64,000 bases of DNA from contig SCTI01000002.1 in assembly GCA_004297735.1 (NCBI GenBank), positions 256,160 to 320,159 of the forward strand, written 5' to 3'. The notes beneath the pieces were generated by a model. That model did no database searches, was not told where the DNA came from, and was given only the letters and a program-made list of their open reading frames with translations. The DNA comes from Patescibacteria group bacterium (GTDB taxonomy: Bacteria > Patescibacteriota > Saccharimonadia > UBA4664 > SCTI01). The translations under genes and the position numbers were made by a program. Positions within the stretch are counted from its first letter, which is position 1; every line of letters starts with the position of its first letter. Shown in pieces: positions 29,796 to 52,010 of the stretch.

Positions 29796-29808
29796 TCTTT
29801 ATAATTCC

Positions 29809-29885: not shown

Positions 29886-29940
29886 ACGTACCAAGGAATT
29901 AACTGCTAAAGATTAGCACAAATCAGGTGTGGTGAAAAGC

Positions 29941-30603
29941 CTAAAACCGGAGGTAGCGAGTTAGGCTTTCAATCCAATCGGGATCGCGATCGACTCGCGG
30001 CAAATGCTGGCTCAGAATTTGATCGATTGTTTGAATGTCATCATTTTCGCAAATAAGGGTCAGGCGGGGAACAAAGCGCTTGATTGGCTCGAGGTCAACG
30101 CTGTACCAGCCGGTGTCCTGCATCACGCTATAGGAGTGAAAGGAGGAGTAGGCGGTGATGTTGCCATGGATATTGACCCCGCTTGCATCTAGCTGGTAGC
30201 TGAGGGTTCGTGGCTGCTTACGGGAGTAGATCATAACTGCGAGCGCCATAACCACCACCACAGCAATACTCAGCCACTGCTGAAAAAAGCCCAGTACTGC
30301 AGCAATTATGGCTGTGGCAAGCCATAAACCCAAATACCAAAAGGCCGGCTTTTGGTGGTAAATATACTCGGAGGCCTCCCAGGTATAGCTTTGGGGGAGG
30401 TTAGGGTCAACGACCGGAGCGGCTGGAGGAGGAGGGGTGGCTGCTGGTTTATCGCCCTCGGGTTGAGGCTGTGCTTCCGGTTGGGGAGCTGGAGCCGATG
30501 GGGGAGTTGGCGGCTGCGGAACGGGTGGTACAGCTGGAGTCGGTGGGGTCGGGAGGGGTGGCACCGGAGTAGGGTTATTTGGTTGTCCGGTTTGTGGATC
30601 CAC
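29941..30603 (-). CDS. hypothetical membrane protein with Pro-rich N-terminus
   Basis: The N-terminal 70 aa are a PxP/PPxP low-complexity tract. Two TM helices follow, then a C-terminal globular domain. Confidence 0.5.
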   Translation of the reverse strand: MDPQTGQPNNPTPVPPLPTPPTPAVPPVPQPPTPPSAPAPQPEAQPQPEGDKPAATPPPPAAPVVDPNLPQSYTWEASEYIYHQKPAFWYLGLWLATAIIAAVLGFFQQWLSIAVVVVMALAVMIYSRKQPRTLSYQLDASGVNIHGNITAYSSFHSYSVMQDTGWYSVDLEPIKRFVPRLTLICENDDIQTIDQILSQHLPRVDRDPDWIESLTRYLRF

Positions 30604-30668
30604 GCTCGCCTCATTTAGGTTATCTTTATTATAACTGTTGGCGGTGAGCTGGCAATGAGCTAAAATGA

Positions 30669-30710
30669 GGTCCGACCCGGCAAAAGGTCAGACCTTCAGC
30701 TAGGTCAGAC
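30669..30710. repeat. three tandem copies of GGTC(C/A)GACC palindromic motif, 16-17 bp period, upstream of tRNA-Ser(UGA)
   Basis: The sequence is GAGGTCCGACCCGGCAAAAGGTCAGACCTTCAGCTAGGTCAGACCTCT. Confidence 0.6.
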
Positions 30711-30718
30711 CTCTACGC

Positions 30719-30808
30719 GGAGGGGTGGCCGAGTGGTTGAAGGCACTGGTCTTGAAAACCAGCAGGCCCGAAAGGGTCTCGTGGGTTCGAATCCCACCTC
30801 CTCCGCCA
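30719..30808 (+). tRNA. tRNA-Ser (anticodon UGA)
   Basis: The sequence is GGAGGGGTGGCCGAGTGGTTGAAGGCACTGGTCTTGAAAACCAG...GTGGGTTCGAATCCCACCTCCTCCGCCA. Confidence 0.85.
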
Positions 30809-32672: not shown

Positions 32673-33104
32673 TTAGCTAGTTGGGCTAGCGGTTAATGAA
32701 CCGGTGACAAAACCGACCACGGCGTAGGCCAAAATAGCGACTACGATACCAACGATTGAGTAAATGATGGTGTTTTTAGCAGCGGTTACTTGGTCGGAGT
32801 TACCGGATGAAATCACGTACCGGAATCCACCGTAAATCAACATGATAACCGAAACAGCACCCACCAAGAAGATGAGGATGTTTGAGATTTGCGAGAAGAC
32901 GCCGTTGGCGCCAAACAAGCTGTCGGCACTACTGGTACCCTTGGAGCAGTCTACGCCCTGATTGATCGTGGAGTTGGCCGGATCAATGGTGGCGGGGCAG
33001 TCCGGGCCGGCGGCACCCATGGCGGTGGCTGGCAAAAAGGTGCTAGCAACCACACTGGCGCGCAGGGCGGTGTGTGCAATTGGATTTGATGTTAGTGATT
33101 TCAC
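32673..33104 (-). CDS. VirB2/TrbC-like pilin paralog 1 (signal peptide + variable Cys-loop + C-terminal hydrophobic hairpin)
   Basis: Signal peptide ...LPATAMG|AAGPD. The variable region has Cys pair DCPATIDPANSTINQGVDC. The conserved core is NILIFLVGAVSVIMLIYGGFRYVISSGNSDQVTAAKNTIIYSIVGIVVAILAYAVVGFV, two hydrophobic helices joined by a short polar loop. Confidence 0.6.
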   Translation of the reverse strand: MKSLTSNPIAHTALRASVVASTFLPATAMGAAGPDCPATIDPANSTINQGVDCSKGTSSADSLFGANGVFSQISNILIFLVGAVSVIMLIYGGFRYVISSGNSDQVTAAKNTIIYSIVGIVVAILAYAVVGFVTGSLTASPTS

Positions 33105-33182
33105 AAGTCTATTCCTGCTTAATGCTTATACTTAGTTTCTGAGGCGAGTATATACCATCTGGCCTTCAGGTTGCAAATCTGT

Positions 33183-33590
33183 CTAGCCCAGAGCGCCTAC
33201 AACAAAGTTGACGACCGCGTAGGCCAAGATTGCAACCACAATCCCGATGATGGCATAGAGGATGGTACTTTTAGCGTCCTCAACGTTCTTGGAGTTACCG
33301 GCGGATGTAACATACCGGAACCCACCGTAAATCAGGGCGATGACAGCCACGGCCCCAACCAAGAAGAGAACGGTGTTGGTAATGTCGCGGAATGATGTAG
33401 TAAGGTCGGCTGGAGTGGTACCCTTAAAGTCAGTGCCAGCACCCTCGCCAGGACGGGACGATTGCGCCCCTTGCTTAATTGGCGATACAGGCTCGTCAGC
33501 AAAAACAGCCGGTGTGTATGCTGTTAATATCGCAGCCGCCATTAAAAGTTGATGTTTTGCCTTACGAAACACAATTATCCTCCTAACCAA
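33183..33590 (-). CDS. VirB2/TrbC-like pilin paralog 2
   Basis: Signal peptide ...PAVFA|DEP. The core is VLFLVGAVAVIALIYGGFRYVTSAGNSKNVEDAKSTILYAIIGIVVAILAYAVVNFVVG. This paralog has no Cys pair. Confidence 0.6.
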   Translation of the reverse strand: MVRRIIVFRKAKHQLLMAAAILTAYTPAVFADEPVSPIKQGAQSSRPGEGAGTDFKGTTPADLTTSFRDITNTVLFLVGAVAVIALIYGGFRYVTSAGNSKNVEDAKSTILYAIIGIVVAILAYAVVNFVVGALG

Positions 33591-33981
33591 TTCTACTTAT
33601 GATGAAGTTTACTATAGCGTAAGCCAGAATTGCCACCACCAGACCGGTTATAGCATAAATGATGGTATGCTTGGCGGCCTCAATTTGGGCAGAATTACCG
33701 GTTGAGGCAACGTAGCGGAATCCACCGTAAATCAAGGCGATAACTGCGATAGCTCCAACCAAATAAAGCAGGACGTTGGAAGCTGTACGAAAGGTTTTCT
33801 TGAGTGAGTCATCGGAGGTACCTGGGCTACCACTGCAAGAATTACCTCCACCAATGTTCGCCCCATTACAAATCTCGCTTTCGGTAGTGGCATGAGCTGC
33901 AGGAGCAACAGTCACAGCGACTGGCGCAGAAAAAATAAGCGCCAAGAACACAATATGCAGAGAAGCAATAAATCGTCTCAT
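33583..33981 (-). CDS. VirB2/TrbC-like pilin paralog 3
   Basis: Signal peptide ...AAHA|TTES. Cys pair ICNGANIGGGNSC. The core is VLLYLVGAIAVIALIYGGFRYVASTGNSAQIEAAKHTIIYAITGLVVAILAYAIVNFI. It overlaps paralog 2 by 8 nt. Confidence 0.6.
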   Translation of the reverse strand: MRRFIASLHIVFLALIFSAPVAVTVAPAAHATTESEICNGANIGGGNSCSGSPGTSDDSLKKTFRTASNVLLYLVGAIAVIALIYGGFRYVASTGNSAQIEAAKHTIIYAITGLVVAILAYAIVNFIISRIG

Positions 33982-34352
33982 TAGAATAAACTCCCAATCA
34001 CAAAGCCAACGATCTGTCGTGCCAACAGCGCTACAATTAGGCCGGTAACGGCGTAAACAATGGTGTTTTTAGCCTGCTTAATCCGATCTTGGTCGCCGGT
34101 AGAAGTGACATAACGTACCGCGCCTATTAGCAGAGCAATGACAGCAAGCGCGCCAACTAGGAAGAAAACCGAGTTGAGAATGTTTCCCAGGGCACCCTCA
34201 AATCCGCTCTTGTCACAAGGGGCACCAGCTGCACTGGCGCCTTTGCAGGCTGGACTCGGAGTATCTTCTGCCAAAGCGGCGAGGGGGGAGGATAAGACGG
34301 CTACTTGAACCGCAACCGTTACAGCAAGTAATTTTTTATTTAATGGCTTCAT
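33981..34352 (-). CDS. VirB2/TrbC-like pilin paralog 4
   Basis: Signal peptide ...ALA|EDT. Cys pair CKGASAAGAPC. The core is VFFLVGALAVIALLIGAVRYVTSTGDQDRIKQAKNTIVYAVTGLIVALLARQIVGFV. It overlaps the neighbouring genes by 1-4 nt. Confidence 0.6.
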   Translation of the reverse strand: MKPLNKKLLAVTVAVQVAVLSSPLAALAEDTPSPACKGASAAGAPCDKSGFEGALGNILNSVFFLVGALAVIALLIGAVRYVTSTGDQDRIKQAKNTIVYAVTGLIVALLARQIVGFVIGSLF

Positions 34353-34792
34353 TGCCCTAATGTTCCAATTACAAATCCAATAATAACACGTGCTAAAGCT
34401 ACCACCACCAGGCCAGCTACAGCGTAGGTAATGGTTTTTTTAGCCGATTCAACTCGGCCTCTATCGCCAGTTGAGGTTATGTAGCCGATTCCACCTATAA
34501 CCAGAAAGACAACCGATACCAGTCCGCCAATATAGATAAAGGCGTTGGTGAGGGTAGTAAGGTAGGCCGGCGTGCCGTCCTCTTGATTTTGAAGGTCACC
34601 AGCTTTGGTGCAGCCGGCCACGTCGCCACCAGCCTTCTTAATGTCCTCGCAAGCCGGCTTGGTAAGCAGGTCGGAGGGAGTGGCGGCTTGCGCTGTGTCC
34701 ATATGTAAAACTTGAGGCATTGCCACTACCGCCACGACGGCTAGCACAAGAGTGATAATTCCGGTAAGTATAAGCCGTTTCATGGCTTGCAT
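34349..34792 (-). CDS. VirB2/TrbC-like pilin paralog 5
   Basis: The start is the internal ATG (MQAMKRLILTG...), since the longer ORF-track start at 34855 would overlap paralog 6. Cys pair CEDIKKAGGDVAGC. The core is FIYIGGLVSVVFLVIGGIGYITSTGDRGRVESAKKTITYAVAGLVVVALARVIIGFV. Confidence 0.55.
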   Translation of the reverse strand: MQAMKRLILTGIITLVLAVVAVVAMPQVLHMDTAQAATPSDLLTKPACEDIKKAGGDVAGCTKAGDLQNQEDGTPAYLTTLTNAFIYIGGLVSVVFLVIGGIGYITSTGDRGRVESAKKTITYAVAGLVVVALARVIIGFVIGTLGQ

Positions 34793-34820
34793 TGTATCTG
34801 ATGTCAGATGGGGTGTAAAG

Positions 34821-35258
34821 TTAGCCCGACGGACTACTGGCAATAACAAAGCCAACTATTGCTCCGGCGGTAATTGACACAACCAGACCAATAATGGCGT
34901 AGGTTATGGTATTTTTGGCACTTTGAATCTTTCCGCTATCCCCATTGGAGCTGGAGTATTTAATTCCACCAATAACAAGGTAAATTACCGATAGGGCACC
35001 GGCAACAGTCGACAACACACCCACAGCGGTTTTAGCAATATTACTTAAGCTAATAACAGGTATTCCGAGTGGGTCATGAGACCTCTCGCCAGCTGGCTTT
35101 TGCGAAGGGGAGTCGAGACAGTTTTTATAGTCTGCATCCTTACAGCCAGTGATGCTTTCGGCAGCCATGGTTGGCTGAAAAGAAAAACCGAGAGCTACGA
35201 TAAGAGTAGTCGCTAAAGTTAGGCCTGTTGCAAAACGCTTGAGCTTCATACTGATCAT
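34821..35258 (-). CDS. VirB2/TrbC-like pilin paralog 6
   Basis: Signal peptide ...TMA|AES. Cys pair CKDADYKNC. The core is LSTVAGALSVIYLVIGGIKYSSSNGDSGKIQSAKNTITYAIIGLVVSITAGAIVGFV. Confidence 0.6.
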   Translation of the reverse strand: MISMKLKRFATGLTLATTLIVALGFSFQPTMAAESITGCKDADYKNCLDSPSQKPAGERSHDPLGIPVISLSNIAKTAVGVLSTVAGALSVIYLVIGGIKYSSSNGDSGKIQSAKNTITYAIIGLVVSITAGAIVGFVIASSPSG

Positions 35259-35283
35259 CCTATCTCATTTAGACATTGCTATG

Positions 35284-35607
35284 CTAGTCGAACTGCCGAA
35301 CAAGGTATTCAACAATAAGGTATGAGCCGCTAGCCAAAATAAGACCTAGCACCGCGTAGGTGATGGTATTTTTAGCTTCGGAAACCTTTCTAGGGTCACC
35401 CTGCGAGGTGATGTATTGAATACCTGCCCAGGTCACAATAATAACGGCTACCACGCCGCACAGAGTAGTTATTAGTTGGATGGCGTTGGCCAACAAAATT
35501 CCAAAAACATCAATATTATCAAACTTAGGTGGATTGGACAGACCATTATATAGACTAGGCAGGACATCGCGGCGATCCTGATCGGCCAATTTAACGATTA
35601 AACTCAT
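35284..35607 (-). CDS. VirB2/TrbC-like pilin paralog 7 (no obvious signal peptide)
   Basis: The core is LCGVVAVIIVTWAGIQYITSQGDPRKVSEAKNTITYAVLGLILASGSYLIVEYL. The N-terminal 40 aa are hydrophilic, with no signal peptide. The start overlaps the stop of paralog 8 by 4 nt. Confidence 0.5.
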   Translation of the reverse strand: MSLIVKLADQDRRDVLPSLYNGLSNPPKFDNIDVFGILLANAIQLITTLCGVVAVIIVTWAGIQYITSQGDPRKVSEAKNTITYAVLGLILASGSYLIVEYLVRQFD

Positions 35608-36053
35608 CTAAACACCTTTGCCCCTTCTGGTAGCAGAAACTGCAGAATTGAGAACATAAGTAAGTATAGAACCAAACCAGTAACCGCTCCCTTTAATCTA
35701 TCTTTAGCCCCTTGAACCTGACTTGAGTCTCCGGCGGAGATAACATACTGGAATCCAGCTATCGCCACTATTAGTATGAGAATGAGGCCAAAAATAGCAC
35801 TAAACCAGCGAATGGCAGCAGATAAAAAGGCGAAGATAGGGTTTTGCGAACTGTCGCCAATGCACTCGTCGCCCAGGGTGTGGTTAGGGGTCCCGCTCTT
35901 ATCCCTGCCATTCCATATTGTACTAACCGGCACCCCACCTTTATCTTTACAGGCTTTTTGCAAATCGGTATCAGCATAGGCTGGCGCGCTAAAGCTGCCA
36001 AGCATTGTGACTAGCATGGCGGGAACCATAAGAATGAGAGCAAGTCGTTTCAT
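35604..36053 (-). CDS. VirB2/TrbC-like pilin paralog 8 (first gene of minus-strand array)
   Basis: Signal peptide ...APAYA|DTD. Cys pair CKDKGGV...DEC. A divergent core is FSAIFGLILILIVAIAGFQYVISAGDSSQVQGAKDRLKGAVTGLVLYLLMFSILQFLL. Confidence 0.55.
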   Translation of the reverse strand: MKRLALILMVPAMLVTMLGSFSAPAYADTDLQKACKDKGGVPVSTIWNGRDKSGTPNHTLGDECIGDSSQNPIFAFLSAAIRWFSAIFGLILILIVAIAGFQYVISAGDSSQVQGAKDRLKGAVTGLVLYLLMFSILQFLLPEGAKVFR

Positions 36054-41065: not shown

Positions 41066-42010
41066 ATGGGCACATATAAGGTTCCACAGAACGTTGAGGC
41101 CGAGGATAAAATCCTAGGGCCGTTGTCGCTCAAGCAGTTCATTTATGCACTGATTGGCTTGGCGTGGGGCTTTTTAACCTTCGCGCTGTTTCGCCAGGTG
41201 ATTGTGCTGTGGGTTTTAATTGGTATTCCACCGGCACTTTTCTTATTGGCGCTTGGACTCTACCAGAAAGAGGATCAGCCGCTTGAGACCTTTGTAATTG
41301 CCATTTTCCAGTTCCTGGTTAGACCAAAGACCAGACTATGGCACAAGGAGCCAATTGCCGAGGTGTTTCGCCTAGAGCCACCCCCACCCAAGGCCGAGAT
41401 CGCTCACCGAGATCCACGCGAAGTTAGGGGACAGCTGCAGCGTTTAGCCGAGCTGGTTGATACACGAGGTTGGTCGGCCAAGCAGCCAGAGCTACAAGAG
41501 GCGGGGGACGAAGCTCCGGTAATCGACTTAATGGACCGGATTGGTGCCGGTGCGCTGGTGCCACAACAAACCCCTTCACTGGGTGGAGCAGCGGTACTAA
41601 CTCCAGCGCCAGCCGGCATGGTGGCGGCACCCGCTACTACCGACGCCCCCGCCGCACCTAATCCTGGCGACCCAGGTATTACCGAAGAAGATGACATCTT
41701 GGCCGAAGGTGGCCAGGTCAGCCAAAACCTTAACACGCTGATTCAAAACAGCGTTAAAAGTATGCGCGCCGAAGCGGTTGAACGCATGAAAAAACCGACC
41801 GCTCCGGTTGCAGCGAAAAAGGTTTCGCCCACCACTCCAAGCACAAGCGGATTAACAGCGCCTCTATCTGGTGATATACTTAAGCTAGCAACTGAAGGTG
41901 GAGATCTGACGGTGGCTCAAATTGCCGCTCAGGCTCACAGGAAACAAGATTTAGTAGAGGGTCAAACGGTACAAGTTCGGAATGGCAACACCACAACCAC
42001 AACCAGCTAA
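41066..42010 (+). CDS. VirB3-like membrane protein with long Pro/Ala-rich C-terminal region
   Basis: The N-terminal two-TM hairpin is LSLKQFIYALIGLAWGFLTF...VLWVLIGIPPALFLLALGLY. Its pattern and its position immediately upstream of VirB4 are VirB3-like. It overlaps the next ORF by 29 nt. Confidence 0.5.
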   Translation: MGTYKVPQNVEAEDKILGPLSLKQFIYALIGLAWGFLTFALFRQVIVLWVLIGIPPALFLLALGLYQKEDQPLETFVIAIFQFLVRPKTRLWHKEPIAEVFRLEPPPPKAEIAHRDPREVRGQLQRLAELVDTRGWSAKQPELQEAGDEAPVIDLMDRIGAGALVPQQTPSLGGAAVLTPAPAGMVAAPATTDAPAAPNPGDPGITEEDDILAEGGQVSQNLNTLIQNSVKSMRAEAVERMKKPTAPVAAKKVSPTTPSTSGLTAPLSGDILKLATEGGDLTVAQIAAQAHRKQDLVEGQTVQVRNGNTTTTTS

Positions 42011-42734
42011 AAAGGGCCCAAAAAAGAACGGGACCCAGGACACCATTTTAATTTCGGAGATCCGAGATGGAATTGTGGTGATGCGTGATGGCAGCTTACG
42101 GGCCGTAGTTATGGCCAGCGCAATTAACTTCGACTTAATGAGCCCTCAAGAACGCGACTCGGTTGAGTACGCCTACCAGAGCTTTTTAAACTCGCTTCAC
42201 TTTCCAGTTCAGATCCTAATTAAGTCACAGAAGCTCGATTTAGATAACTACATCGCCAAACTGGCTCAGCTGCGCCAAGACCAAGACAACGATTTGCTCG
42301 GTCTACTAATGGACGACTACATTGCCAACATTCAATCGCTGGTTGACGAGGTGAACATCATGGATAAGCAGTTCTATGTGGTGGTTCCGTTCTTCCCGCC
42401 AGCAATGACCAAGGTTAAGAAGGGTAATTTGGCTACCGGCTTAATGGGTGCCTTAAAACAGCAAGACGTAACCACCGTAAACGAAACCGATTTTGCGGCG
42501 TTTAAGGAAGAGTTAACCCAGCGGGTTCAAATGGTATCATCGGGACTCAGTCAGATGGGGGTACGCAACATTCCACTTAACACCCAGGAGCTAATTGAGC
42601 TTTATTACAGCAGCTACAACCCAGATGTGGCCCAAAACCAGCGCTTAACCGAAGCAGCGCAGCTGCAAACCGCCGCGGTCACCAAGGGTGAGGGGCAGGC
42701 TCCAACTCAACTAGCTCAAGGAGGACCTTTCTAG
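41982..42734 (+). CDS. VirB4/TrbE/CagE-family ATPase, N-terminal domain ORF (split gene or frameshift)
   Basis: The 250-aa product reads ...DTILISEIRDGIVVMRDGSLRAVVMASAINFDLMSPQERDSVEYAYQSFLNSL..., the conserved VirB4 N-terminal (CagE_TrbE_VirB) pattern. Its stop TAG overlaps the GTG of the next ORF by 1 nt, in a different frame. Confidence 0.7.
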   Translation: MATPQPQPAKKGPKKNGTQDTILISEIRDGIVVMRDGSLRAVVMASAINFDLMSPQERDSVEYAYQSFLNSLHFPVQILIKSQKLDLDNYIAKLAQLRQDQDNDLLGLLMDDYIANIQSLVDEVNIMDKQFYVVVPFFPPAMTKVKKGNLATGLMGALKQQDVTTVNETDFAAFKEELTQRVQMVSSGLSQMGVRNIPLNTQELIELYYSSYNPDVAQNQRLTEAAQLQTAAVTKGEGQAPTQLAQGGPF

Positions 42735-44644
42735 TGGGGCTTTTTGGTAAAAAACCAGATCAAGATCCGGTAGCGCTGGCCGAAGCCCAGCGGTTACGCG
42801 AACAACAAGAAGCCGAGGCGATCTACCGCCAGGGCATTGTGAGTCTACGCGACCTAATCGCGCCTCCATCACTCGAAATTGCTGGCGACCACCTGCGAGT
42901 AGGCACCCGGTTTGCTCGTACCTTATACGTGTACGGTTACCCGCGACAGATTTACACCGGCTGGTTGAGCCCAATCATCAACCTCGATGAGGTGCTCGAC
43001 ATCAGTATGTTTATCTACCCGGTTGAGAGCCAGGTGGTTCTAAACAACCTACGCCGAAAGGTGGGTCAGCTCGAAGCCAGCTACGCCATCAACCAAGAAA
43101 AGGGGAGGGTTCGTGACCCAGCCCTAGAGGCAGCCATTCTCGATGCCGAAGAACTACGTGACAAGCTGCAGGTGGGCGAGGAGCGATTCTTCCGCTTTGG
43201 ACTTTACGTTACCATCTACGGCGATAGCATGGATGAGATTAAAAATGTTCAACGAAAACTTGAGGGAATCTTTGGTCAGTCGCTGGTATACAGTAAGCCG
43301 GCCAGCATGCAAATGGAGCCAGGCTTTAACTCAACCCTGCCGATGGCTAACGACCAGCTTCAGGTTAGCCGCAACATGAACACCGGGGCGCTATCGACCA
43401 GCTTCCCATTTACCTCGGCCGAACTCAGCCACAACGAAGGCGTGCTTTACGGCGTCAACCGTCACAACAACGGCTTGGTTTTGTTTGACCGCTTTACGCT
43501 CGAAAACGCCAATATGGTGGTATTCGCTAAGTCCGGTGGCGGTAAGTCGTTTGCGGTTAAACTAGAGGCCTTGCGCAGCTTAATGATCGGTACCGAGGTA
43601 TTGGTAATCGACCCCGAAAACGAGTATCAAACCCTGTGCGAAGCGGTTGGTGGTAGCTATTTGCGACTGAGCCTAGCCTCACAGAACCGCCTTAACCCGT
43701 TTGATCTACCGCACGTACTCGATAGCGAGGATGCCGATAACGCCCTGCGGGCCAACATCATCACCCTGCACGGCCTGCTACGGCTAATGATGGGTGGTGA
43801 CGCCGCGCCGCTCAGCCCGGCCGAAGACGCCGACTTAGATGTGGCCATTATTAATACCTACGCAAAGGCCGGTATTACTAACGATCCGCTAACTCATAGC
43901 GCCACGCCACCAACCATGAATGACCTTCATAAAACTTTAAGTGAGATGAGTGGAAACGGTCCGTCATTGGCCCAGCGCTTACGCAAGTACACCACCGGCA
44001 CCTTTGCTGGAATCTTTAGTGAGCAGTCCAACGTTGATTTGTATAACAAGTTCGTGGTGTTTAATATTCGCGACCTCGAAGACGAGCTGCGCCCGGTCGG
44101 TATGTACATTGTGCTCAACTACATCTGGAACAAGGTTAAATCCGACAAGCGCCGGCGTATCTTGGTGGTTGATGAGGCCTGGCAGTTAATGAAGTATGAA
44201 GATTCGGCCAACTTTATGTTTAGTATTGCCAAGCGAGCCCGTAAATACCAGCTGGGCCTAACCACGATTTCGCAGGACGTTGATGACTTTTTGAGCTCAC
44301 GTATGGGTCGAGCGGTGGTCAGTAACTCTTCGCTACAACTTCTACTTAAGCAAGCGCCGTCTTCGGTCGACATTGTGGGTGAGACCTTTAAGCTGACTAG
44401 CGAGGAAAAGAGCCGGTTGACCAGTTTTCCGGTGGGCGAGGGGCTGTTCTTTGCCGGGTTGAACCATGTGGTTATGCGAATTTTGGCCTCCCAAACCGAG
44501 AGCCAGTTGATTACCACCAGCCCGCAACAGGTGGCAGCCCAGCAGGCGGCCCAGCAGTATCAACAGGAGGCCCAACAAGCGGCTCCTCCACCGGCAAGCC
44601 AACCACTGGAGACAGGAGAGCAGGAGCTAAACAGTGCCGGTTGA
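42734..44644 (+). CDS. VirB4-family ATPase, C-terminal NTPase domain ORF
   Basis: Walker A is FAKSGGGKSF and Walker B is RILVVDEAWQLM. The VirB4-type C-terminal motifs are present. The start is GTG. Confidence 0.85.
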   Translation: MGLFGKKPDQDPVALAEAQRLREQQEAEAIYRQGIVSLRDLIAPPSLEIAGDHLRVGTRFARTLYVYGYPRQIYTGWLSPIINLDEVLDISMFIYPVESQVVLNNLRRKVGQLEASYAINQEKGRVRDPALEAAILDAEELRDKLQVGEERFFRFGLYVTIYGDSMDEIKNVQRKLEGIFGQSLVYSKPASMQMEPGFNSTLPMANDQLQVSRNMNTGALSTSFPFTSAELSHNEGVLYGVNRHNNGLVLFDRFTLENANMVVFAKSGGGKSFAVKLEALRSLMIGTEVLVIDPENEYQTLCEAVGGSYLRLSLASQNRLNPFDLPHVLDSEDADNALRANIITLHGLLRLMMGGDAAPLSPAEDADLDVAIINTYAKAGITNDPLTHSATPPTMNDLHKTLSEMSGNGPSLAQRLRKYTTGTFAGIFSEQSNVDLYNKFVVFNIRDLEDELRPVGMYIVLNYIWNKVKSDKRRRILVVDEAWQLMKYEDSANFMFSIAKRARKYQLGLTTISQDVDDFLSSRMGRAVVSNSSLQLLLKQAPSSVDIVGETFKLTSEEKSRLTSFPVGEGLFFAGLNHVVMRILASQTESQLITTSPQQVAAQQAAQQYQQEAQQAAPPPASQPLETGEQELNSAG

Positions 44645-47552
44645 GGAACGTGATCGTCAAATTGCCGGTGGGGCATCTGACGATGCTGCGGCAGCGAAAC
44701 GAGCAGCTAAAGCCGAGGAGGCTCGTGAACTTGGTTTATATATTCCAGAAGATTTTGTCGATAATCCACAGAATCCAGGTAGCAACACTGGTATTGCAAA
44801 GCCCGATAGCACTGAAGAAAATCTAAAGGGTAGTGATGACTCCCAAATGCGGCGGGTTGGCCGAATGCGCGGTCTGGCTGACCGGGCGGTCACGCAGTTT
44901 AGGGGACTGAGCGGTAATCGGCGGGTGGTTGCCGCCGTACTGGGTGGCGGCGGAATTGTTGGCATTATGATAGCGCTGTTTTTAACCTTTGCTCAGTTTA
45001 AGCTCATTCACATGATGGAGAATATGGCTGATCATTTATTTTCGCGCAACCAGCACATGTTTGAGGTTCGCCGTGACGTTTATATGCGCGAGTTTTACAA
45101 TAACTACCTTGGTGCGCCGGATAGCAACATCGACGATAGCACCGCCACTCTCAGCCAACAGATTATGCGTCGAATGAAGGATGGGTTAGAGCCTCGGCTA
45201 AACGAAAAGTACAAGGTTGAGGTTAAAGCTGATCCAGCTAGCCCGCGCTACAAACGCGTAAAGTTTACCGACAAGCGGACCGGCCAAGTGACCGAGTTTA
45301 GTACCGCGTTTACTAATAGTGAGGACCGGCGCCGTGCCCGGGAGTTCAATAAGCAGGTTAGCCGTGAAATAACCCGAGACGATGGCTGGCTCAAGCGAGT
45401 CTGGTTTAAGGGGCGGATGACTAGAATAACCGGCACTAAATGGAACTGGCTTGATCCAATCAAGCAGCCATACAATAAAGCCAAGTTGGCCGCCTCCAAT
45501 CAAGTAGCAAAGTTTCTTTTAAGCGACCAGAGTAAGGCGTCTGGACTGCGTAAGCAGTTGATTTCAAAACTCTTTGGCGACACCGATATTGAGGATAGCG
45601 TGAATTCAGAAATTAGCACGGCCGCGAGCGCCGATGACGCCCAAAAACTTTTATCTGAAAAAATAACCTCGGCGGCCTCAAAGGGGGTTAGCACTGTCGG
45701 TTTGGCGGTATTGGCGGTTCAGGTTGGTTGTTCAATCGACGACCTATTATCTAAAGACACCTTCAATAAGGCTGTGCGACAAAAGATGGAGATTGAGTAT
45801 ATGACTCAATACGCCTCAATGATTAGTAAATCTAGTCAGCTAAAACTCGGTAAAACCGACGGCAATACGGTTAATGCCCACATGGCTATGATGACCTTTA
45901 CCGATAAAAACGGTAGGCCCCATGATGTGGCGGAAAGTAATAATTACCGCCGGGCTACCGGAGAAAAGGTCGACTACCACCCAACCGATAACTGCAATGA
46001 TTATTCTGAACTATGTGAAGCAAAGCTACCCGGTAAAGCCACCAGCGACCACGCCATTGCTGGTAACTTTTTGGCGGGAGCAGGAGCGGCTAGCTCAGCC
46101 TACAACTCCACCGCTTACCAGGTTGCAGCTAAGGTTATACCGTTACCTGGAATTCCAGGCAGTTTTGGTACCGATGCGGTTTGTTACGCCTGGGATCACG
46201 GAATAAAGCAGATATCAAATGGTGTTGCTGACGTTGTTGATCGCTTACTTAGCGCAGTACCAGTTGTACGTACTGTGTGGGGGGAGATTAAGGGAGCTAG
46301 CGCAGATGTTGTCGGCGCAATTAATGATAAGTTTATGGGCTGGATAGCGGTGTCGGTGGTTGATGCGGATACCACGGGTCCATTCTTAGCTAGCGCCACT
46401 GGCGCAGGCGGTAGCCTAGCGGCGGCTTCAGCGGCTGGATCACCGGTAGGAACCGATGCGACCGGAGATGACAGCCAGGCTTGTCACAATAAATCAGCCG
46501 AGGAAAAAGCCCAAGATGATAGCTTTTGCGGCAAACCATTAAGTCGAGATCAAATCGCCCAGACAGATCGTGTGATTGCGCAGGAAGAGTATGAAGACGC
46601 TAAAAACGCTCCTTTCATGACCAAGATTGCCTCGCTCGACACACCTTACTCTCTAGCTAGCAAAGTGGTGGACGCAATCCCTGCCTCACCCCAAACTCTT
46701 ACCGATCGCACCAGCCAGTTTATTATTGCTGCCACCAATCCACACTCGCTAATGAAAGCCCTGCGTAACCTACCTAACGCGCTGTCGCCACAAGCCATAG
46801 CCTCCCAGGGCCAGGGTTCGCTGGTAGTAAACAGTGATGGCACCGATCAGTACAACACCCGCATTTACGGTCATACCGAAGAAGATCTACAAAAACCCCT
46901 CGATTCACCCGGCTTAGAGAATCTTGATAGGAATACGGGGTGTAGTATTATCGCTGGACTAAAAGGTAAAAAGGACAAGCATGGTGATCCAATAGAACTG
47001 CCTGAGAAATGCGAGATAGATGGTCAAAGTGGAAACTACAGTGTTAATAGCCCAGATACGCCAGACAACCCTGGAGATGTTACGGGTGATGCTAAAACTA
47101 TTGCCCAACACATACTTGACGAAGCTGATAAAGATAATCCAAAAATAATTTTTAACCCTACTATGTATAACTCCCAAGATGAGGCGGATGGATCTACCCC
47201 CCGTAAAAATGTTGAGCAAATTGCCCACGGCCAAAAAGCAAAAACCACTACCACCTGTGGGGGTAGCCGCGGGGGAGCAGTACCGCCAGTATCCGAAGTT
47301 GTACTTAACACAAGCCTACTTAAGTTTATACTTGAGCTTAGTGGTAGAACCACCATCCATATAAACGCACTGGCCGGGCAATGCCACCATGATACATCGT
47401 CAAATCATTACAAGGGCAAGGCTATTGACTTTGGTTGTCCATTAAATGCAAGTGAGGCTGATGCAGTGGGGCGAAAATACGGAATATCGGACGGTACGGG
47501 TGAGTACTGCTCAAATACATCACACTACCACTACTCGGTCGGGGGTCACTAG
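44634..47552 (+). CDS. large bitopic membrane protein with C-terminal LAS/M15-type zinc peptidase motif (putative peptidoglycan hydrolase)
   Basis: The 972-aa product has a single TM (VVAAVLGGGGIVGIMIALFLTF) near residue 100. The C-terminus reads ...HINALAGQCHHDTSSNHYKGKAIDFGC...HYHYSVGGH, carrying the SxHxxGxAxD motif of the M15 family. Confidence 0.6.
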   Translation: MPVEERDRQIAGGASDDAAAAKRAAKAEEARELGLYIPEDFVDNPQNPGSNTGIAKPDSTEENLKGSDDSQMRRVGRMRGLADRAVTQFRGLSGNRRVVAAVLGGGGIVGIMIALFLTFAQFKLIHMMENMADHLFSRNQHMFEVRRDVYMREFYNNYLGAPDSNIDDSTATLSQQIMRRMKDGLEPRLNEKYKVEVKADPASPRYKRVKFTDKRTGQVTEFSTAFTNSEDRRRAREFNKQVSREITRDDGWLKRVWFKGRMTRITGTKWNWLDPIKQPYNKAKLAASNQVAKFLLSDQSKASGLRKQLISKLFGDTDIEDSVNSEISTAASADDAQKLLSEKITSAASKGVSTVGLAVLAVQVGCSIDDLLSKDTFNKAVRQKMEIEYMTQYASMISKSSQLKLGKTDGNTVNAHMAMMTFTDKNGRPHDVAESNNYRRATGEKVDYHPTDNCNDYSELCEAKLPGKATSDHAIAGNFLAGAGAASSAYNSTAYQVAAKVIPLPGIPGSFGTDAVCYAWDHGIKQISNGVADVVDRLLSAVPVVRTVWGEIKGASADVVGAINDKFMGWIAVSVVDADTTGPFLASATGAGGSLAAASAAGSPVGTDATGDDSQACHNKSAEEKAQDDSFCGKPLSRDQIAQTDRVIAQEEYEDAKNAPFMTKIASLDTPYSLASKVVDAIPASPQTLTDRTSQFIIAATNPHSLMKALRNLPNALSPQAIASQGQGSLVVNSDGTDQYNTRIYGHTEEDLQKPLDSPGLENLDRNTGCSIIAGLKGKKDKHGDPIELPEKCEIDGQSGNYSVNSPDTPDNPGDVTGDAKTIAQHILDEADKDNPKIIFNPTMYNSQDEADGSTPRKNVEQIAHGQKAKTTTTCGGSRGGAVPPVSEVVLNTSLLKFILELSGRTTIHINALAGQCHHDTSSNHYKGKAIDFGCPLNASEADAVGRKYGISDGTGEYCSNTSHYHYSVGGH

Positions 47553-47554
47553 GC

Positions 47555-49306
47555 GTGAGAAAGCTTTGCTATATATTTATATGCATTATTACCCTACTTA
47601 CAGTACCTATGCAGGCTTTTGCCGCTGAAAGTATTTCCGATGAAGACTCCGTGTTTTACGGCGCAGAGTGGTATGACCCAAATGGTACATGTTCCGGTAG
47701 TGGTAGTGCTGTTTTTGGACCAGGAACGCTGCCAAGCTCTGTACCTGAACCCTATAATCGGATATTTACCGCAGCCGCCAGGAAATTTAATATTTCTGCA
47801 GCATTTCTTGCTGCAGTGTTTTACGGTGGAGAACACGGGAATAGCTTCCCCGAACCCCCTCCACCATATGGCCACGGTGCACCATGGGCTACTTCTTGGG
47901 CTGCTGCTCAAGGACCTTTTCAATTCCTAGAATCAACATGGCGTAGCTATAAGGTTGACGGAAATGGGGATGGTCGAGAGGATATTCAAGATCTAACAGA
48001 TGGTGCTTTTGGTGGAGCTAAGTACCTTGCGGCACTAGGAGCCAAAAACACCACTAGTGAAGCTAAGCTTCGCAAAGCCGCCGCCGATTACAATGGCATA
48101 CATGATCCAAGCGCATCATATCCAAGTAATGTATGGGCTGCTTACCAGAAGTTTTCTACAGGCTCTCCATCACCCAGCGCCACCTCTTCGCCCTCTGGAG
48201 CCACGCCAGATCCAACCGGTGGTGGTGAGGGGTCGGTGTATATTTTAGGAGATTCATTAATGGTGGGTTCCTACTATGAAGGTAATAAGTATCTAAAAGG
48301 CTTTTTAGATACTAAAAACATCAACGCTTATGTTGATGCGTCGGTTGGCCGGGGAATAAAAAGCGGGGGGTCGGATCCATCAAATAATAGGCCTGCTGCA
48401 GAGAAATCAGGAATCGATGCAGTTGAAATCGACAAAGATGTTATTAAAGATGCCGGAACTATTGTGATTGAGCTTGGGACAAATAAAAGCAGTTCTACTA
48501 ATGCCTTTAAGCAGGATATGAAGGATTTGATTAATAAAGTCAAAAGTATAAATGGGGATGCAAAAATATATTGGGTTAATATTGTATCGGAAAATGACTC
48601 CGATTATACGACATACAATACAATCATTGAACAAGTCACATCTGACGAAAATATTTATTTTATTGATGAAAAATCCAAAAATATTAATTTAGACGGATCA
48701 AAATTACACCCAACCGATGATGGTTATAAAAAATACTCACAAACAATCGCCGATGCAGTTGGTGCAGCTGGTAGTCAAAATGCGGCTGAGTGTACTAGTA
48801 CGGGTGGTGTTGGGGCATCTGGGTATAAAAACCCTCTTAGGGACATTAGGGGTCTCACCCGAATGCGTATTGATATGGGTGTAGATTATGGTGGTAGTGG
48901 TCCTTTTTATGCAATCGGTAATGGTAAAGTAGTGTCAGCTACAACAAGTAGCGGCTGGCCGGGAGGGAATTGGGTTAGCTACCAGCTAACAGATGGGCCG
49001 GCAAAAGATAAGTATGTATATGTGGCGGAAAATTGCAGTATAAAAGTTAGCGTCGGTGATGAGGTTACCTCAGACACGGTTTTATGTGAATTACATGACT
49101 CATACCCCTACTCAGAAACTGGTTGGGCAGTGCCGCCAGACCAAGGGACTACTGCTGCTGCTCATAATGTATATGTTGAGGGTGATGTGACTGCATATGG
49201 TGTTAACTTCTCCGATCTAATGAAGAGTATTGGGGCACCACCAGGTGTAGGTAATCGTAATGCTGCGGTTGGTAGCTTACCTGATGGGTGGCCATCTTGG
49301 AGGTAA
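47555..49306 (+). CDS. secreted multidomain cell-wall hydrolase: lytic transglycosylase (SLT) + SGNH/GDSL + M23-like domain
   Basis: A signal peptide is followed by the SLT motifs ...GGEHGNSF..., AQGPFQFLESTW and AADYNGI. Next is the GDSL block YILGDSLMVGS. The C-terminus reads RIDMGVDYGGSGPFYAIGNGKVV, M23-like but lacking the HxxxD histidine, so it may be degenerate. Confidence 0.75.
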   Translation: MRKLCYIFICIITLLTVPMQAFAAESISDEDSVFYGAEWYDPNGTCSGSGSAVFGPGTLPSSVPEPYNRIFTAAARKFNISAAFLAAVFYGGEHGNSFPEPPPPYGHGAPWATSWAAAQGPFQFLESTWRSYKVDGNGDGREDIQDLTDGAFGGAKYLAALGAKNTTSEAKLRKAAADYNGIHDPSASYPSNVWAAYQKFSTGSPSPSATSSPSGATPDPTGGGEGSVYILGDSLMVGSYYEGNKYLKGFLDTKNINAYVDASVGRGIKSGGSDPSNNRPAAEKSGIDAVEIDKDVIKDAGTIVIELGTNKSSSTNAFKQDMKDLINKVKSINGDAKIYWVNIVSENDSDYTTYNTIIEQVTSDENIYFIDEKSKNINLDGSKLHPTDDGYKKYSQTIADAVGAAGSQNAAECTSTGGVGASGYKNPLRDIRGLTRMRIDMGVDYGGSGPFYAIGNGKVVSATTSSGWPGGNWVSYQLTDGPAKDKYVYVAENCSIKVSVGDEVTSDTVLCELHDSYPYSETGWAVPPDQGTTAAAHNVYVEGDVTAYGVNFSDLMKSIGAPPGVGNRNAAVGSLPDGWPSWR

Positions 49307-50699
49307 TAAGCGAGACGTGATGATAAGAAGAGTAATAACATACATAATTGCTACTACTATTGTTTTAGTGGTTGGGGTGTTTATTTATAACTTTTTCACA
49401 ACCGGATCAATAAAAATAACTACAAATGATCCAGAAAACATTATTACACTCACACCGGTTTCAGATGATGATGATATTAAAGCCAAAGATGCCGAAATAA
49501 AACAGGGTAAAGGTAGTTTAAGTGTCACGGTTCATACGGGTAAATATATTGCATCGGTCGACGGCGGGTCTATTGCAATAACAAAAATAATCAACCTATC
49601 ATCGCATAAGACGATTAGGGAATATTTAAATCCTCAAAAAACAAGCGCCATAGAGCCAGTTGCTAATGAGCCTGGTGTAAATGTATCTGCTGACGACTCT
49701 TCACTTGTATACGTCAATTCCCTTAATAACACACTAAATCGCATATCATCATCAAATAACATTATAAAGTTAAGCGATGTTAAGTTTAAGGTTATTAAGT
49801 GGGCTAACCCAAACTTTGGTTTTGGCCAGGGTGTAGACAACAGTTTTTATATTATTAAAAATGGATCTGTATTAAAATTATCAACTCCGGCTGATGTGGG
49901 TGATAGTAATATAGTAAACTTTGATGTGTCGCCAGATGAAAAAATATATTTTTCGTGGAACGGTAAAATTTATAAATATTCAGGTAAAGAATTTATTGAG
50001 ATATATAAATCAAAAACATCACACCCCAACCTTATAGCGTCGGTAAATGGTGTGATTGCTTTAGATAGTAGTGGTGACGCCCGTGCTGGAAACACTGAGC
50101 CAATAATGGCTTTTATTAAAAATAAAGGTGTTAAAAAGCAAAAAATTGAAGCCTATACCGGATCTTGGTCACCCAGCGGTAAGTACCTTGCCACCAGTAG
50201 TGATTCTGGTAGTAATATTTATGATGATAACCTTAGGGAGGTTGCGGTCATACCTAGCCAAAATATCAACTCTCCTACATGGTTAAACGATTACACGTTA
50301 TTATATGGTATTCAAGATGGTCTATGGTCGTATAATATCCAAAATCAGCAGGCTCACAAGATTGCCAATATACCTCTAGCTGAGCCAATATCGGAAATAC
50401 AGATTAGTCATAATAAAGAGTATGCCTATGTGGTGGTTGGCGAAGAAGGAACCGCTTCCATTAAAAGAATTGGTATTAATAACCAAACAACCCCTAAGGT
50501 TGTTTTAGCACTACAAAACCTTTTACCATTAACCTTAAGTCAATCTACTATACAACTAATAAATTTTTCTGGTAAGCCGGCGGTTGTTGTTAAGCCTATA
50601 CCCGGAATACCCCAAACAAACTATCAGCAAGAAGCTCAAAATGAACTTAAATTAGACGGCATAGATCTTAATCAAATAGAGTTAAGGTTTGGTGGTTAG
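49260..50699 (+). CDS. membrane-anchored beta-propeller-like protein (PD40/TolB-like repeats), AT-rich gene
   Basis: There is an N-terminal TM anchor (ITYIIATTIVLVVGVFIYNFF). The start may instead be ATG 49320 (MIRRV). PD40-like strands are present (SWSPSGKYLATSSDSG). The GC content, about 33%, is far below the window average. Confidence 0.5.
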   Translation: MLRLVAYLMGGHLGGNKRDVMIRRVITYIIATTIVLVVGVFIYNFFTTGSIKITTNDPENIITLTPVSDDDDIKAKDAEIKQGKGSLSVTVHTGKYIASVDGGSIAITKIINLSSHKTIREYLNPQKTSAIEPVANEPGVNVSADDSSLVYVNSLNNTLNRISSSNNIIKLSDVKFKVIKWANPNFGFGQGVDNSFYIIKNGSVLKLSTPADVGDSNIVNFDVSPDEKIYFSWNGKIYKYSGKEFIEIYKSKTSHPNLIASVNGVIALDSSGDARAGNTEPIMAFIKNKGVKKQKIEAYTGSWSPSGKYLATSSDSGSNIYDDNLREVAVIPSQNINSPTWLNDYTLLYGIQDGLWSYNIQNQQAHKIANIPLAEPISEIQISHNKEYAYVVVGEEGTASIKRIGINNQTTPKVVLALQNLLPLTLSQSTIQLINFSGKPAVVVKPIPGIPQTNYQQEAQNELKLDGIDLNQIELRFGG

Positions 50700-50950
50700 T
50701 AGTTAATATTTATAACTAAGTGTTTCACCTTATTAAATTTACCCTTAATCTCAACCTGCATAAACCTTAACTCACTAGCGATACTAGCGCTTTTTGTGGT
50801 AACTCGTAATACGCCATCGTTGATACTAACGGCTCGACATTTACCAGGAAATACCTTGTCCAGATAGCATTGAACCTCACTTAAAGTATCACCGCGCTCT
50901 AAGCCCAGCTGACTGGCTTTGCGCTGTAGGTAATCATTTATACCATCCAT
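50696..50950 (-). CDS. DUF721-domain protein (DciA-like), downstream of recF
   Basis: The product is about 85 aa when started at the internal ATG (MDGINDYLQRKASQLGL...), with an ...LRVTTKSASIASELRF... pattern. Its position after recF is the canonical DUF721 location. Confidence 0.55.
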   Translation of the reverse strand: MDGINDYLQRKASQLGLERGDTLSEVQCYLDKVFPGKCRAVSINDGVLRVTTKSASIASELRFMQVEIKGKFNKVKHLVININY

Positions 50951-50951
50951 A

Positions 50952-52010
50952 CTAAACTCGCGCCTTAGGATTGGTGTAAATGGTGTGAGCATCAAGCTGG
51001 CTAGCCATATCGCCATCGGTGGTGGTGATAATTACCTGGTGACCGTCAAACGCCTGAGTGAGTAGGGTACGGCGCTGGTCATCAAGCTCACTAAACACAT
51101 CGTCTAGTAATAAAATAGGGGATATACCGGTGGCTTGTTTAATATAAGTTAACTCCGCTAATTTAAGAGTTAATACAACCGTACGAATCTCGCCACGAGA
51201 GGCTACCGTGGTTATGTCGCTATCCTTGAAGTTAACTTCCATATCATCTCGGTGCGGGCCGATAGTGGTAAAGCCGGCACCGAGATCGCGCGCCTGATTT
51301 GCTTCTAGTAGTCTAATAAAGTGACTAGGATAATCTAATGGATCTGCGGCGCCAAGATAATTAAGTTCAACCGGCTCAGCTTTGCCGGCGATTTTAGCGT
51401 AGCTTGATTCGGCTAATTTATTAATGTGATCCACCACCTGACGCCGCGCCGCATCAATATCGGCAGCTAGTTCTGCTAATTTAACATTCCAGGCAAAAAG
51501 CTCTGCGGTATCACCGGTCCAATCTGATAATAAACGATTACGCTGCTGCAAAACCCGGCGGTAACGATGAGTTAAGGTTAAATAGTTGGGGTTGGTTTGA
51601 GTTAAGATAAAATCAAGATAACGGCGGCGGCGATCTGGGGCACCAAGAATAAGTTGAGTATCGTTCGGTTCAAATAGTACCACCTTAAGCCGACTAAGGT
51701 GTTTTATTAACGACTGTTTATTGCCCTGGTGGTAGGCGCGCTTTTCGGTGTTTTGGTCATTTTTTTGATACCCTAAACCAATCTCACCATCAGTTGTGTC
51801 GGCGGTTAAACGGTAAAAAGATTCACCGTGGCGAATTAACTCGGTGTCTTTGGCACGGAATGATTTCGTGGTAGCGAGCACGAATACGGCTTCGAGTAGA
51901 TTGGTTTTACCGGTAGCGTTTGGTCCAACCACCACGGTTAACTTTGGATTAAGATCGGTTGTAAATTCCGAATACGAACGGAAGTTGGTTAGGGTTAAGC
52001 GTGAGATCAC
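50952..52010 (-). CDS. recF: DNA replication and repair protein RecF
   Basis: The N-terminus is MISRLTLTNFRSYSEF...VVGPNATGKTNLLEAV (Walker A). The C-terminal signature region is LLLDDVFSELD. Confidence 0.93.
   Translation of the reverse strand: MISRLTLTNFRSYSEFTTDLNPKLTVVVGPNATGKTNLLEAVFVLATTKSFRAKDTELIRHGESFYRLTADTTDGEIGLGYQKNDQNTEKRAYHQGNKQSLIKHLSRLKVVLFEPNDTQLILGAPDRRRRYLDFILTQTNPNYLTLTHRYRRVLQQRNRLLSDWTGDTAELFAWNVKLAELAADIDAARRQVVDHINKLAESSYAKIAGKAEPVELNYLGAADPLDYPSHFIRLLEANQARDLGAGFTTIGPHRDDMEVNFKDSDITTVASRGEIRTVVLTLKLAELTYIKQATGISPILLLDDVFSELDDQRRTLLTQAFDGHQVIITTTDGDMASQLDAHTIYTNPKARV

Follow-up and report, generated by a model that had tools for sequence, protein, structure and literature searches.

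Three adjacent genes on the forward strand of the window (the whole stretch of DNA that was analysed, 64,000 nt) encode a membrane protein and two proteins related to the ATPase VirB4. The first gene (41066..42010, +) specifies a PrgI-like (VirB3-type) membrane protein of 314 aa, in which a PrgI domain (Pfam PF12666, E 1e-13) occupies residues 5-91 and is followed by a long Pro/Ala-rich tail. Given that domain, the label 'VirB3-like' that the first-pass annotation of this DNA had used is fair, and the 29-nt overlap that it reported with the next gene is indeed present. The second gene (ORF1; 41982..42734, +; ATG start, TAG stop) encodes a TrsD-like protein of 250 aa, a free-standing form of the VirB4 N-terminal ('TraC-like') domain. 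The third (ORF2; 42734..44644, +; GTG start) encodes a short VirB4-type ATPase of 636 aa, without the first ~180 canonical VirB4 positions. The coordinates of these two ORFs and their one-base overlap had been noted previously and are borne out here, as is their occupation of different frames, ORF2 being in the +2 (= -1) frame with respect to ORF1. The surrounding cluster in the window also comprises VirB2-like pilin paralogues, a VirB6-like protein and a cell-wall hydrolase.

The junction between ORF1 and ORF2 is the string TAGTG (42732..42736, +), in which the stop codon of ORF1 (TAG, 42732-42734) and the start codon of ORF2 (GTG, 42734-42736) have the single base 42734 in common; the sequence reads TTC TAG TG. 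Inside the 3' end of ORF1, 8 nt 5' of the GTG, is a Shine-Dalgarno-like sequence, AAGGAGGA (42718..42725, +). One-base overlaps between a stop and a start codon rank among the most frequent types of junction between genes of bacterial operons, and the overlap itself is therefore not statistically odd. Other adjacent genes of the same operon overlap by 29, 11 and 47 nt.

The membership of ORF2 in the VirB4 family is borne out by a profile match above the curated cut-off and by its Walker motifs. The protein reaches 369.8 bits with NCBIfam conju_CD1110, whose cut-off is 325, over positions 178-731 of 752, and is also matched by VirB4_CagE (positions 239-729 of 792) and by P-loop_TraG (E 4e-28, 98.7 bits; cut-off 25.8). 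Amongst proteins of known structure it matches the VirB4 C-terminal domain (PDB 4AG5, E 1e-47), TrwK being matched at 330-732. The NTPase motifs proposed earlier were found as AKSGGGKS (Walker A; 43526..43549, +; residues 265-272) and ILVVDE (Walker B; 44159..44176, +; residues 476-481). The canonical one-chain architecture of VirB4 is not found, the stop codon at 42732-42734 standing between the N-terminal and ATPase domains; residue 34 of ORF2 aligns with residue 221 of PrgJ, a full-length VirB4.

ORF1 is a TrsD homologue. Its match to the NCBIfam family TrsD/TraD (NF041427) has an E value of 2.6e-9 and a score of 37 bits against a curated cut-off of 200, which makes it a distant relative of TrsD/TraD that lies outside the narrow NF041427 subfamily. 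Two profiles of full-length VirB4 are matched weakly, VirB4_plasma at positions 100-233 (E 6e-7) and conju_CD1110 at positions 2-104 (E 1e-3); with the TrsD/TraD match, these N-terminal positions uphold the initial description of ORF1 as the VirB4 N-terminal domain. There are 5096 database homologues, the best 120 of which are all 217-342 aa long and all carry the precomputed family PF26593 TraC-like. A protein that shares 217 aa with ORF1 at 100% identity also has this family as a precomputed entry, although a local Pfam scan of ORF1 returned no family. When the homologues were represented by clusters at 50% identity, 149 of the best 150 representatives were short and one was fused.

An AlphaFold2 model of ORF1 (pLDDT 82, residues 228-250 being a disordered tail) was compared with the PDB using Foldseek, and the 14 best matches were all to TrwK/VirB4 of R388 (probability 1.00, E 2e-4 to 1e-2), with a modest query TM of 0.33-0.48. 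The matched TrwK residues are absent from the Foldseek output, so the N-terminal placement of ORF1 rests on the profile coordinates. VirB4 was found by fold comparison only, since PDB sequence searches with ORF1 alone, or with a profile of 64 ORF1 homologues, gave matches at the level of chance. Nor did hhalign align the ORF1 profile significantly with PrgJ, taken as a single sequence (E 0.11), and homology to the N-terminus of PrgJ thus rests on the CD1110 profile match.

When ORF1 and ORF2 are placed together on profiles of full-length VirB4 they are collinear and do not overlap: ORF1 covers positions 2-104 and ORF2 positions 178-731 of CD1110, and the corresponding ranges in VirB4_plasma are 100-233 and 281-893. 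A natural fusion of 898 aa (P0222), found on 5 contigs from at least three samples, has a TrsD part (11-241), a Pro-rich linker and an ATPase part (322-885), and a fused TrsD-ATPase form is also encoded on a Bacillus mycoides plasmid. The break between the TrsD-like and ATPase parts falls in a disordered linker, which accounts for the natural occurrence of split as well as fused versions. These results bear on the proposal that ORF1 is an independent T4SS accessory protein, for example an assembly factor or a regulator, and that 'split VirB4' is a misleading term. Such a role would suit a protein whose homology to VirB4 N-termini is remote and which evolves approximately twice as fast as ORF2; moreover, TrsD homologues of Gracilibacteria do not adjoin virB4 (Quiñonero-Coronel et al. 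2025, PMC12102498), and at one locus (L060) no ATPase gene was found within reach of the TrsD homologue. We nevertheless regard it as improbable in view of the collinear and complementary mapping of the two proteins, the occurrence, in at least two lineages, of N-to-C fusions that keep this order, the absence from ORF2 of ~180 N-terminal positions that are present in PrgJ and canonical VirB4, and a fold match that is to VirB4 exclusively.

The arrangement was surveyed in 59 evaluable loci, namely the window and 58 loci, from as many species genomes, that were analysed by tblastn. The first-pass annotation had proposed asking whether orthologues are fused or split; the TrsD-like and ATPase genes are separate in all 59 loci, which come from Saccharimonadia, CPR2, Yanofskybacteria and other lineages, and the junctions are of varied type. 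One-base overlaps occur in 37 (TAATG in 32, TAGTG in three and TGATG in two), and the remaining junctions are other short overlaps or gaps and, at nine loci, spacers of 85-414 nt that contain stops. The frame of the ATPase gene relative to the TrsD-like gene is offset by +2 in 46 loci, by +1 in 10 and by 0 in three. A Shine-Dalgarno-like motif of the GGAG type is present 4-18 nt 5' of the ATPase start in 54/59 loci, and in most the start codon at the junction corresponds to the N-terminus (Met) of the ATPase. The DNA 5' of the ORF1 stop is not conserved across relatives. A PrgI-like gene lies directly 5' of the TrsD-like gene at 56 of the 59 loci, with an overlap of 1-53 nt in most of the closest relatives, and the PrgI/TrsD-like/ATPase triple is also found in C. 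difficile BI1 and in Miltoncostaea. The proteins of the window have their closest relatives in Saccharimonadia. Purifying selection is strong on both ORFs, with pN of 0.09-0.20 against pS of 0.65-0.91 (for ORF1, 0.15-0.20 against 0.70-0.91); pN and pS are given rather than dN/dS, since most comparisons show saturation at synonymous sites.

It has to be considered whether a programmed -1 ribosomal frameshift, or some other form of recoding, joins the two ORFs into a single VirB4 of ~885 aa, in which case their separateness would be an illusion of annotation. ORF2 follows ORF1 in the -1 frame, both frames are open over the 40 nt from 42692 to 42731, and fused proteins of similar size exist elsewhere; but no slippery heptamer of the form X XXY YYZ was found in that 40-nt stretch, and the sequence before the ORF1 stop varies amongst relatives. 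The presence of all three frame offsets in orthologues, of stop-containing spacers of up to 414 nt at nine loci, and of a Shine-Dalgarno-like motif with a Met start at the ATPase N-terminus in 54 of 59 also speaks against recoding. Neither a conserved slippery site nor a conserved frame relation was found, and the frameshift, one of the options raised at the outset, was rejected as very unlikely. Least credible of all is that an intact virB4 was split in the source genome only, by a recent pseudogenising mutation or by an indel that arose in sequencing or assembly: the window apparently derives from a metagenome assembly, as do all the genomes of the closest relatives, and homopolymers (T5 at 42741, A6 at 42749) lie just 3' of the junction, but these runs fall within the conserved ORF2 N-terminus MGLFGKK, 58 further species-level genomes, the work of many projects and assemblers, have the split too, the junction is identical in one further Logan assembly, a relative 90% identical to the window has TAATG at the same place without an indel, the ORF1 homologues among 5096 database proteins have a length of about 250 aa (217-342 aa in the best 120), and both ORFs combine little amino-acid change with saturated synonymous sites, pN being far below pS. 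Thus, of the three explanations first offered for the junction, only a split gene with translational coupling is supported, the coupling itself being predicted from sequence.

Among the closest known systems to the window pair is that of the staphylococcal conjugative plasmids pGO1/pSK41, in which TrsD and TrsE (TraD/TraE) belong to the MPF-FATA class. The gene order trsC-trsD-trsE of pGO1 is like that of the window, and the VirB3-like TrsC overlaps TrsD. The TrsD protein of pGO1 aligns with ORF1 end to end, both by BLASTP (residues 11-213 against 26-216, E 2e-5) and by hhalign (175 columns, E 3e-5, probability 73%). Residue 40 of ORF2 aligns with residue 36 of TrsE; that the alignment begins within the first ~40 residues of ORF2 indicates that the break point is homologous in pGO1 and the window. 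It should be noted that the proteins are only 22-25% identical, that the trsD/trsE junction is a 14-nt gap whereas that of the window is a one-base overlap, and that a relaxase and a coupling protein accompany the system on pGO1, a conjugative plasmid, whereas the T4SS of the window is chromosomal and has a pilin cluster. The earlier statement that VirB4 in characterised systems is a single polypeptide does not hold in general, since the experimentally studied pGO1 encodes TrsD and TrsE separately, with the same split point; the unusualness of the arrangement had therefore been overrated.

In the full-length VirB4 proteins (TrwK of R388, PrgJ of pCF10, VirB4 of A. tumefaciens and TraC of F) the ATPase domain is as in ORF2; the fold of ORF1 is that of the N-terminal part of TrwK, and the PrgJ gene of pCF10 adjoins a gene of the VirB3 type, as in the window. 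Each of these proteins is one chain, whereas in the window a gene of its own encodes the first ~180-220 residues. Actinomycetota have pairs of an SCO6880-family protein and an ATPase, and the SCO6880 family model gives weak collinear matches to ORF1 (244-300) and ORF2 (331-475 of 477), at 15.6 and 17.1 bits, which are below its curated cut-off of 60; judged by profile mapping only, any split in systems of the SCO6880 type would fall elsewhere than in the window pair.

Within the Patescibacteria, separate genes for TrsD and a short VirB4 are the ordinary and already published layout of the T4SS. TrsD has been described as the most abundant component of these systems and as a remote homologue of the VirB4 N-terminus; 1664 of 2272 TrsD homologues adjoin virB4, the trsD gene of S. 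epibionticum ML1 is essential, and some systems also have VirB3 fused to VirB4 (PMC12102498). Epibiotic growth requires the T4SS (Wang et al. 2023, PMC10633639). The Patescibacteria T4SS of these two reports, which in S. epibionticum is SEML1_0006-0019, has the same parts as the window cluster, with TrsD adjoining virB4 as the rule and with no substantive difference; the portions considered here do not describe the overlap of stop and start codons, the diversity of junctions or the rare fused forms. The first mention of the likeness between TrsD and the VirB4 N-terminus was also sought in Guglielmini et al. 2014 (PMC4027160), in the main text of which the name TrsD does not appear.

The locus very probably encodes the core of a T4SS in which the VirB4 function is provided by a TrsD-like protein and a short ATPase, as two polypeptides from one operon. 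This T4SS is chromosomal, is of the monoderm type (MPF-FATA-like) and belongs to a Saccharimonadia (Patescibacteria) bacterium, in a lineage where two genes as a rule supply the VirB4 function, the TrsD-like protein representing the most N-terminal domain and the short ATPase the remainder of VirB4, P-loop motor included. Two polypeptides made from a tightly packed, translationally coupled operon are the most likely products, as far as can be read from the DNA. The ATPase gene has its own Shine-Dalgarno sequence within the last part of the TrsD-like gene, and this, together with the shared base, means that ribosomes could either terminate and re-initiate at the junction or initiate there afresh, which would keep production of the two proteins at approximately matching levels. 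In the R388 structure VirB3 is held by the N-terminal domain of VirB4. Analogy with R388 and the order of the genes suggest that docking of the ATPase hexamer onto the PrgI membrane protein, which is encoded directly upstream, is probably the task of the TrsD-like protein.

A more speculative suggestion, which we think rather unlikely, is that the fission of VirB4 is a shared derived character linking the Patescibacteria T4SS with the pGO1-type branch of monoderm conjugation systems and with similar pairs in Clostridia, Actinomycetota and even haloarchaeal plasmids. The fission might also be functional, going beyond a neutral break in a disordered linker that is repeatedly fused and split: a dissociable TrsD with its own stoichiometry could be a regulated adaptor, controlling whether the ATPase hexamer docks onto PrgI, which is extended in Saccharimonadia.

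For annotation, it follows that a junction of this kind should not be flagged as a frameshifted or broken virB4; the N-terminal domain of VirB4 is normally separate, as TrsD, in Patescibacteria, in pGO1-type systems and in several other monoderm systems. The additions made here to the published picture are modest, namely that the break lies in a disordered linker and that natural split and fused versions both occur. These could guide the design of structural constructs for an essential T4SS.

ORF1, a TrsD-like gene (41982-42734, plus strand), opens with ATG, encodes 250 aa and closes with a TAG stop at 42732-42734; ORF2, the gene for a short VirB4 ATPase (42734-44644, plus strand), opens with GTG and encodes 636 aa. 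Base 42734 is common to the stop of the one and the start of the other, in the string TTC-TAG-TG, and the frame of ORF2 is +2 (= -1) relative to ORF1. The upstream ORF (41066-42010, plus strand, 314 aa) carries a PrgI domain (E 1e-13) and overlaps ORF1 by 29 nt at its 3' end. The first-pass annotation had given the coordinates and sizes of ORF1 and ORF2, the one-base TAGTG overlap and the 29-nt overlap with a VirB3-like ORF, and the sequence bears it out. Few junctions in bacterial operons are commoner than a one-base stop/start overlap, and that between ORF1 and ORF2 is therefore unremarkable in itself. The operon as a whole is densely packed, the next gene 3' of ORF2 beginning 11 nt inside the ORF2 end and a 47-nt overlap following further downstream.

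By profile and structural comparison, ORF2 is a VirB4-type ATPase. It scores 369.8 bits against NCBIfam conju_CD1110 (cut-off 325 bits), over profile positions 178-731 of 752, and matches the VirB4_CagE profile at positions 239-729 of 792, Pfam P-loop_TraG (E 4e-28), PDB 4AG5, the VirB4 C-terminal domain (E 1e-47), and TrwK residues 330-732; Walker A (AKSGGGKS) and Walker B (ILVVDE) are both found. Because the profile matches begin that far in, ORF2 lacks approximately the first 180 positions of a canonical VirB4. ORF1 matches the missing positions (VirB4_plasma 100-233, E 6e-7; CD1110 2-104, E 1e-3), and NCBIfam TrsD/TraD at E 2.6e-9, under the cut-off of that family. An AlphaFold2 model of ORF1 built on 64 homologues (mean pLDDT 82) has a folded core (residues approximately 18-220) followed by a disordered tail (228-250). 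When it was searched against the PDB with Foldseek, the best 14 matches were all TrwK/VirB4 chains of the R388 type IV secretion system (T4SS), among them 7O41 and 8RTB (probability 1.00, E 2e-4 to 1e-2), and unrelated folds appeared only at E > 0.05. A Pfam-A hmmscan of ORF1 (41982-42734) returned no family, whereas PF26593 (‘TraC-like’) is among the precomputed annotations of all close homologues and of a protein sharing 100% identity with ORF1 across 217 aa, which looks like a discrepancy of library version or threshold. ORF1 and ORF2 are shown to be two conserved genes that are collinear with full-length VirB4.

Comparison of homologous sequences shows that the split is real and old. A database search with ORF1 gave 5096 homologues at E <= 1e-3; the 120 best are 61-100% identical, all 217-342 aa long and, where named, mostly from Saccharimonadia. 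Of the best 150 representatives of clusters at 50% identity, 149 are short, the exception being a protein of 898 aa. Sixty species-level loci were collected from GTDB genomes (Saccharimonadia, CPR2, Yanofskybacteria, Gracilibacteria and others), of which 58, together with the window, gave 59 evaluable junctions. In all 59, a TrsD-like ORF stops and a separate ATPase ORF starts, and the type of junction varies: a one-base overlap as TAATG (32 loci), TAGTG (three) or TGATG (two), an overlap of 4 or 8 nt (two), a gap of 0-15 nt (11) or a spacer of 85-414 nt (nine). Of the 59 loci, 54 have a GGAG-type Shine-Dalgarno motif ahead of the ATPase start, and in most loci the N-terminus of the ATPase (MGLFGKK... 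in the window) aligns from residue 1 onward. ORF2 has its own Shine-Dalgarno motif (AAGGAGGA, 8 nt 5' of its start) and a start codon at the ORF1 stop. Against seven relatives, pN and pS are 0.15-0.20 and 0.70-0.91 for ORF1, and 0.09-0.10 and 0.65-0.89 for ORF2; on these values, selection has maintained both ORFs over evolutionary distances that saturate silent sites. Thus, the option of a genuinely split gene, one of three raised in the first-pass annotation, is upheld. A Gracilibacteria MAG has a TrsD homologue (34% identity) with no VirB4-like ATPase detected in the 4 kb downstream, consistent with a published exception in that group.

The second option was a programmed or accidental frameshift. 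Upstream of 42692 the ORF2 frame is closed, and any recoding is thereby confined to 40 nt; this stretch contains no X XXY YYZ heptamer and, before the stop, is not conserved at the DNA level. A conserved frameshift is incompatible with orthologues that vary in frame offset (+2 in 46 loci, +1 in 10, 0 in three) and have long stop-containing spacers of up to 414 nt, and this reading is refuted. The third, a sequencing or assembly indel, fails because the T5 (42741) and A6 (42749) runs both fall within the conserved ORF2 N-terminus, all 59 junctions are split, a Logan assembly has a junction identical to that of the window, no indel is present in a 90%-identical relative, in which TAATG stands at that position, and pN is far below pS.

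It had also been supposed that VirB4 is a single polypeptide in characterized systems. This does not hold for the staphylococcal conjugative plasmid pGO1, in which trsC (VirB3-like) overlaps trsD (227 aa) by 14 nt and a 14-nt gap separates trsD from trsE, encoding a 672-aa DUF87/VirB4 protein. ORF1 11-213 pairs end to end with TrsD 26-216 (E 2e-5; hhalign E 3e-5) and ORF2 aligns from residue 40 with TrsE from residue 36 (E 1e-42); the break point is therefore homologous. The PrgI/TrsD-like/ATPase triple is likewise annotated in Clostridioides difficile BI1 and the actinomycete Miltoncostaea oceani. On a plasmid of the haloarchaeon Haloplanus sp. GDY1 (L071 3974-7935), a 552-aa protein has the TrsD-like sequence as its N-terminal part, and its gene shares 4 nt with that of a 768-aa DUF87 ATPase. 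PrgJ of pCF10, in contrast, is a single chain, its residue 221 pairing with ORF2 residue 34. Natural fusions also occur. P0222 (898 aa; L065 4001-6697, also L066 and L067), present on five contigs that derive from at least three samples or independent sequencing runs, joins a TrsD part (11-241, 35% identical to ORF1) to an ATPase part (322-885, 53% identical to ORF2) through a Pro-rich linker of approximately 70 residues, and is preceded by a PrgI gene (139 aa) with a 4-nt overlap; a Bacillus mycoides plasmid (L072 2926-5421) encodes an 831-aa DUF87 protein with a TrsD-like N-terminus, adjoining a pilin gene. The fused forms place the break in a disordered linker and imply that split and fused states have been interconverted.

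The window fits the published Patescibacteria T4SS: pilins, a large polytopic membrane protein, PrgI, TrsD, VirB4 and a hydrolase. In the survey by Quiñonero-Coronel et al., PrgI is the monoderm counterpart of VirB3, TrsD, a remote homologue of the VirB4 N-terminus, is the most abundant T4SS component (2272 homologues, 1664 of them VirB4-associated, Gracilibacteria being an exception) and the essential genes listed include the virB4-adjoining TrsD homologue of S. epibionticum ML1 (PMC12102498); Wang et al. (Cell 2023) showed the T4SS cluster SEML1_0006-0019, including pilin genes, to be essential for epibiotic growth (PMC10633639). The PrgI-like protein of the window comprises a PrgI domain of approximately 90 aa and a Pro/Ala-rich tail of approximately 220 aa; extended lengths (258-374 aa) are conserved in Saccharimonadia among L001-L059, whereas PrgI measures 105-161 aa in L056, L057 and L059, which belong to three other lineages, and 102-139 aa in the fused-form lineage, Firmicutes and Actinomycetota. 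Seven tandem T4SS_pilin (PF18895) paralogues of 123-168 aa (32673-36053, minus strand), three of which also match TrbC/VirB2, lie divergently upstream of the operon, resembling the unusual T4SS pilin cluster of S. epibionticum. A 583-aa ORF (47555-49306) combines SLT lytic transglycosylase and GDSL esterase domains with a weak M23 peptidase match and is therefore probably a VirB1-type wall hydrolase. The 972-aa ORF at 44634-47552 has no Pfam match; on visual inspection, the C-terminal sequence (…HYKGKAIDFG…SHYHYSVGGH) resembles a putative LAS/M15-type zinc peptidase motif. GC content is 0.40-0.42 at 48001-52000, against approximately 0.50 elsewhere, over the hydrolase gene end, a 479-aa ORF (49260-50699) with no convincing Pfam match and the next minus-strand gene. 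Five tRNA genes, four for Ser (GGA, GCT, CGA, TGA) and one for Arg (GCG), lie at 12827-12916 and 28570-30808, four of the five within 2.3 kb.

ORF1 and ORF2 would thus be expected to yield two separate polypeptides, their synthesis linked by termination-reinitiation or independent initiation at UAGUG, and the TrsD-like protein may act in trans as the N-terminal domain of VirB4. The R388 counterpart of this domain binds VirB3 and, by analogy, the TrsD-like protein could tether the ATPase hexamer to PrgI. The literature already describes the two-gene arrangement as the norm, both in this lineage and in systems of the pGO1 type, and the present analysis makes small additions only: a catalogue of junction types, a disordered linker as the site of the break, and the fusions that occur in nature.
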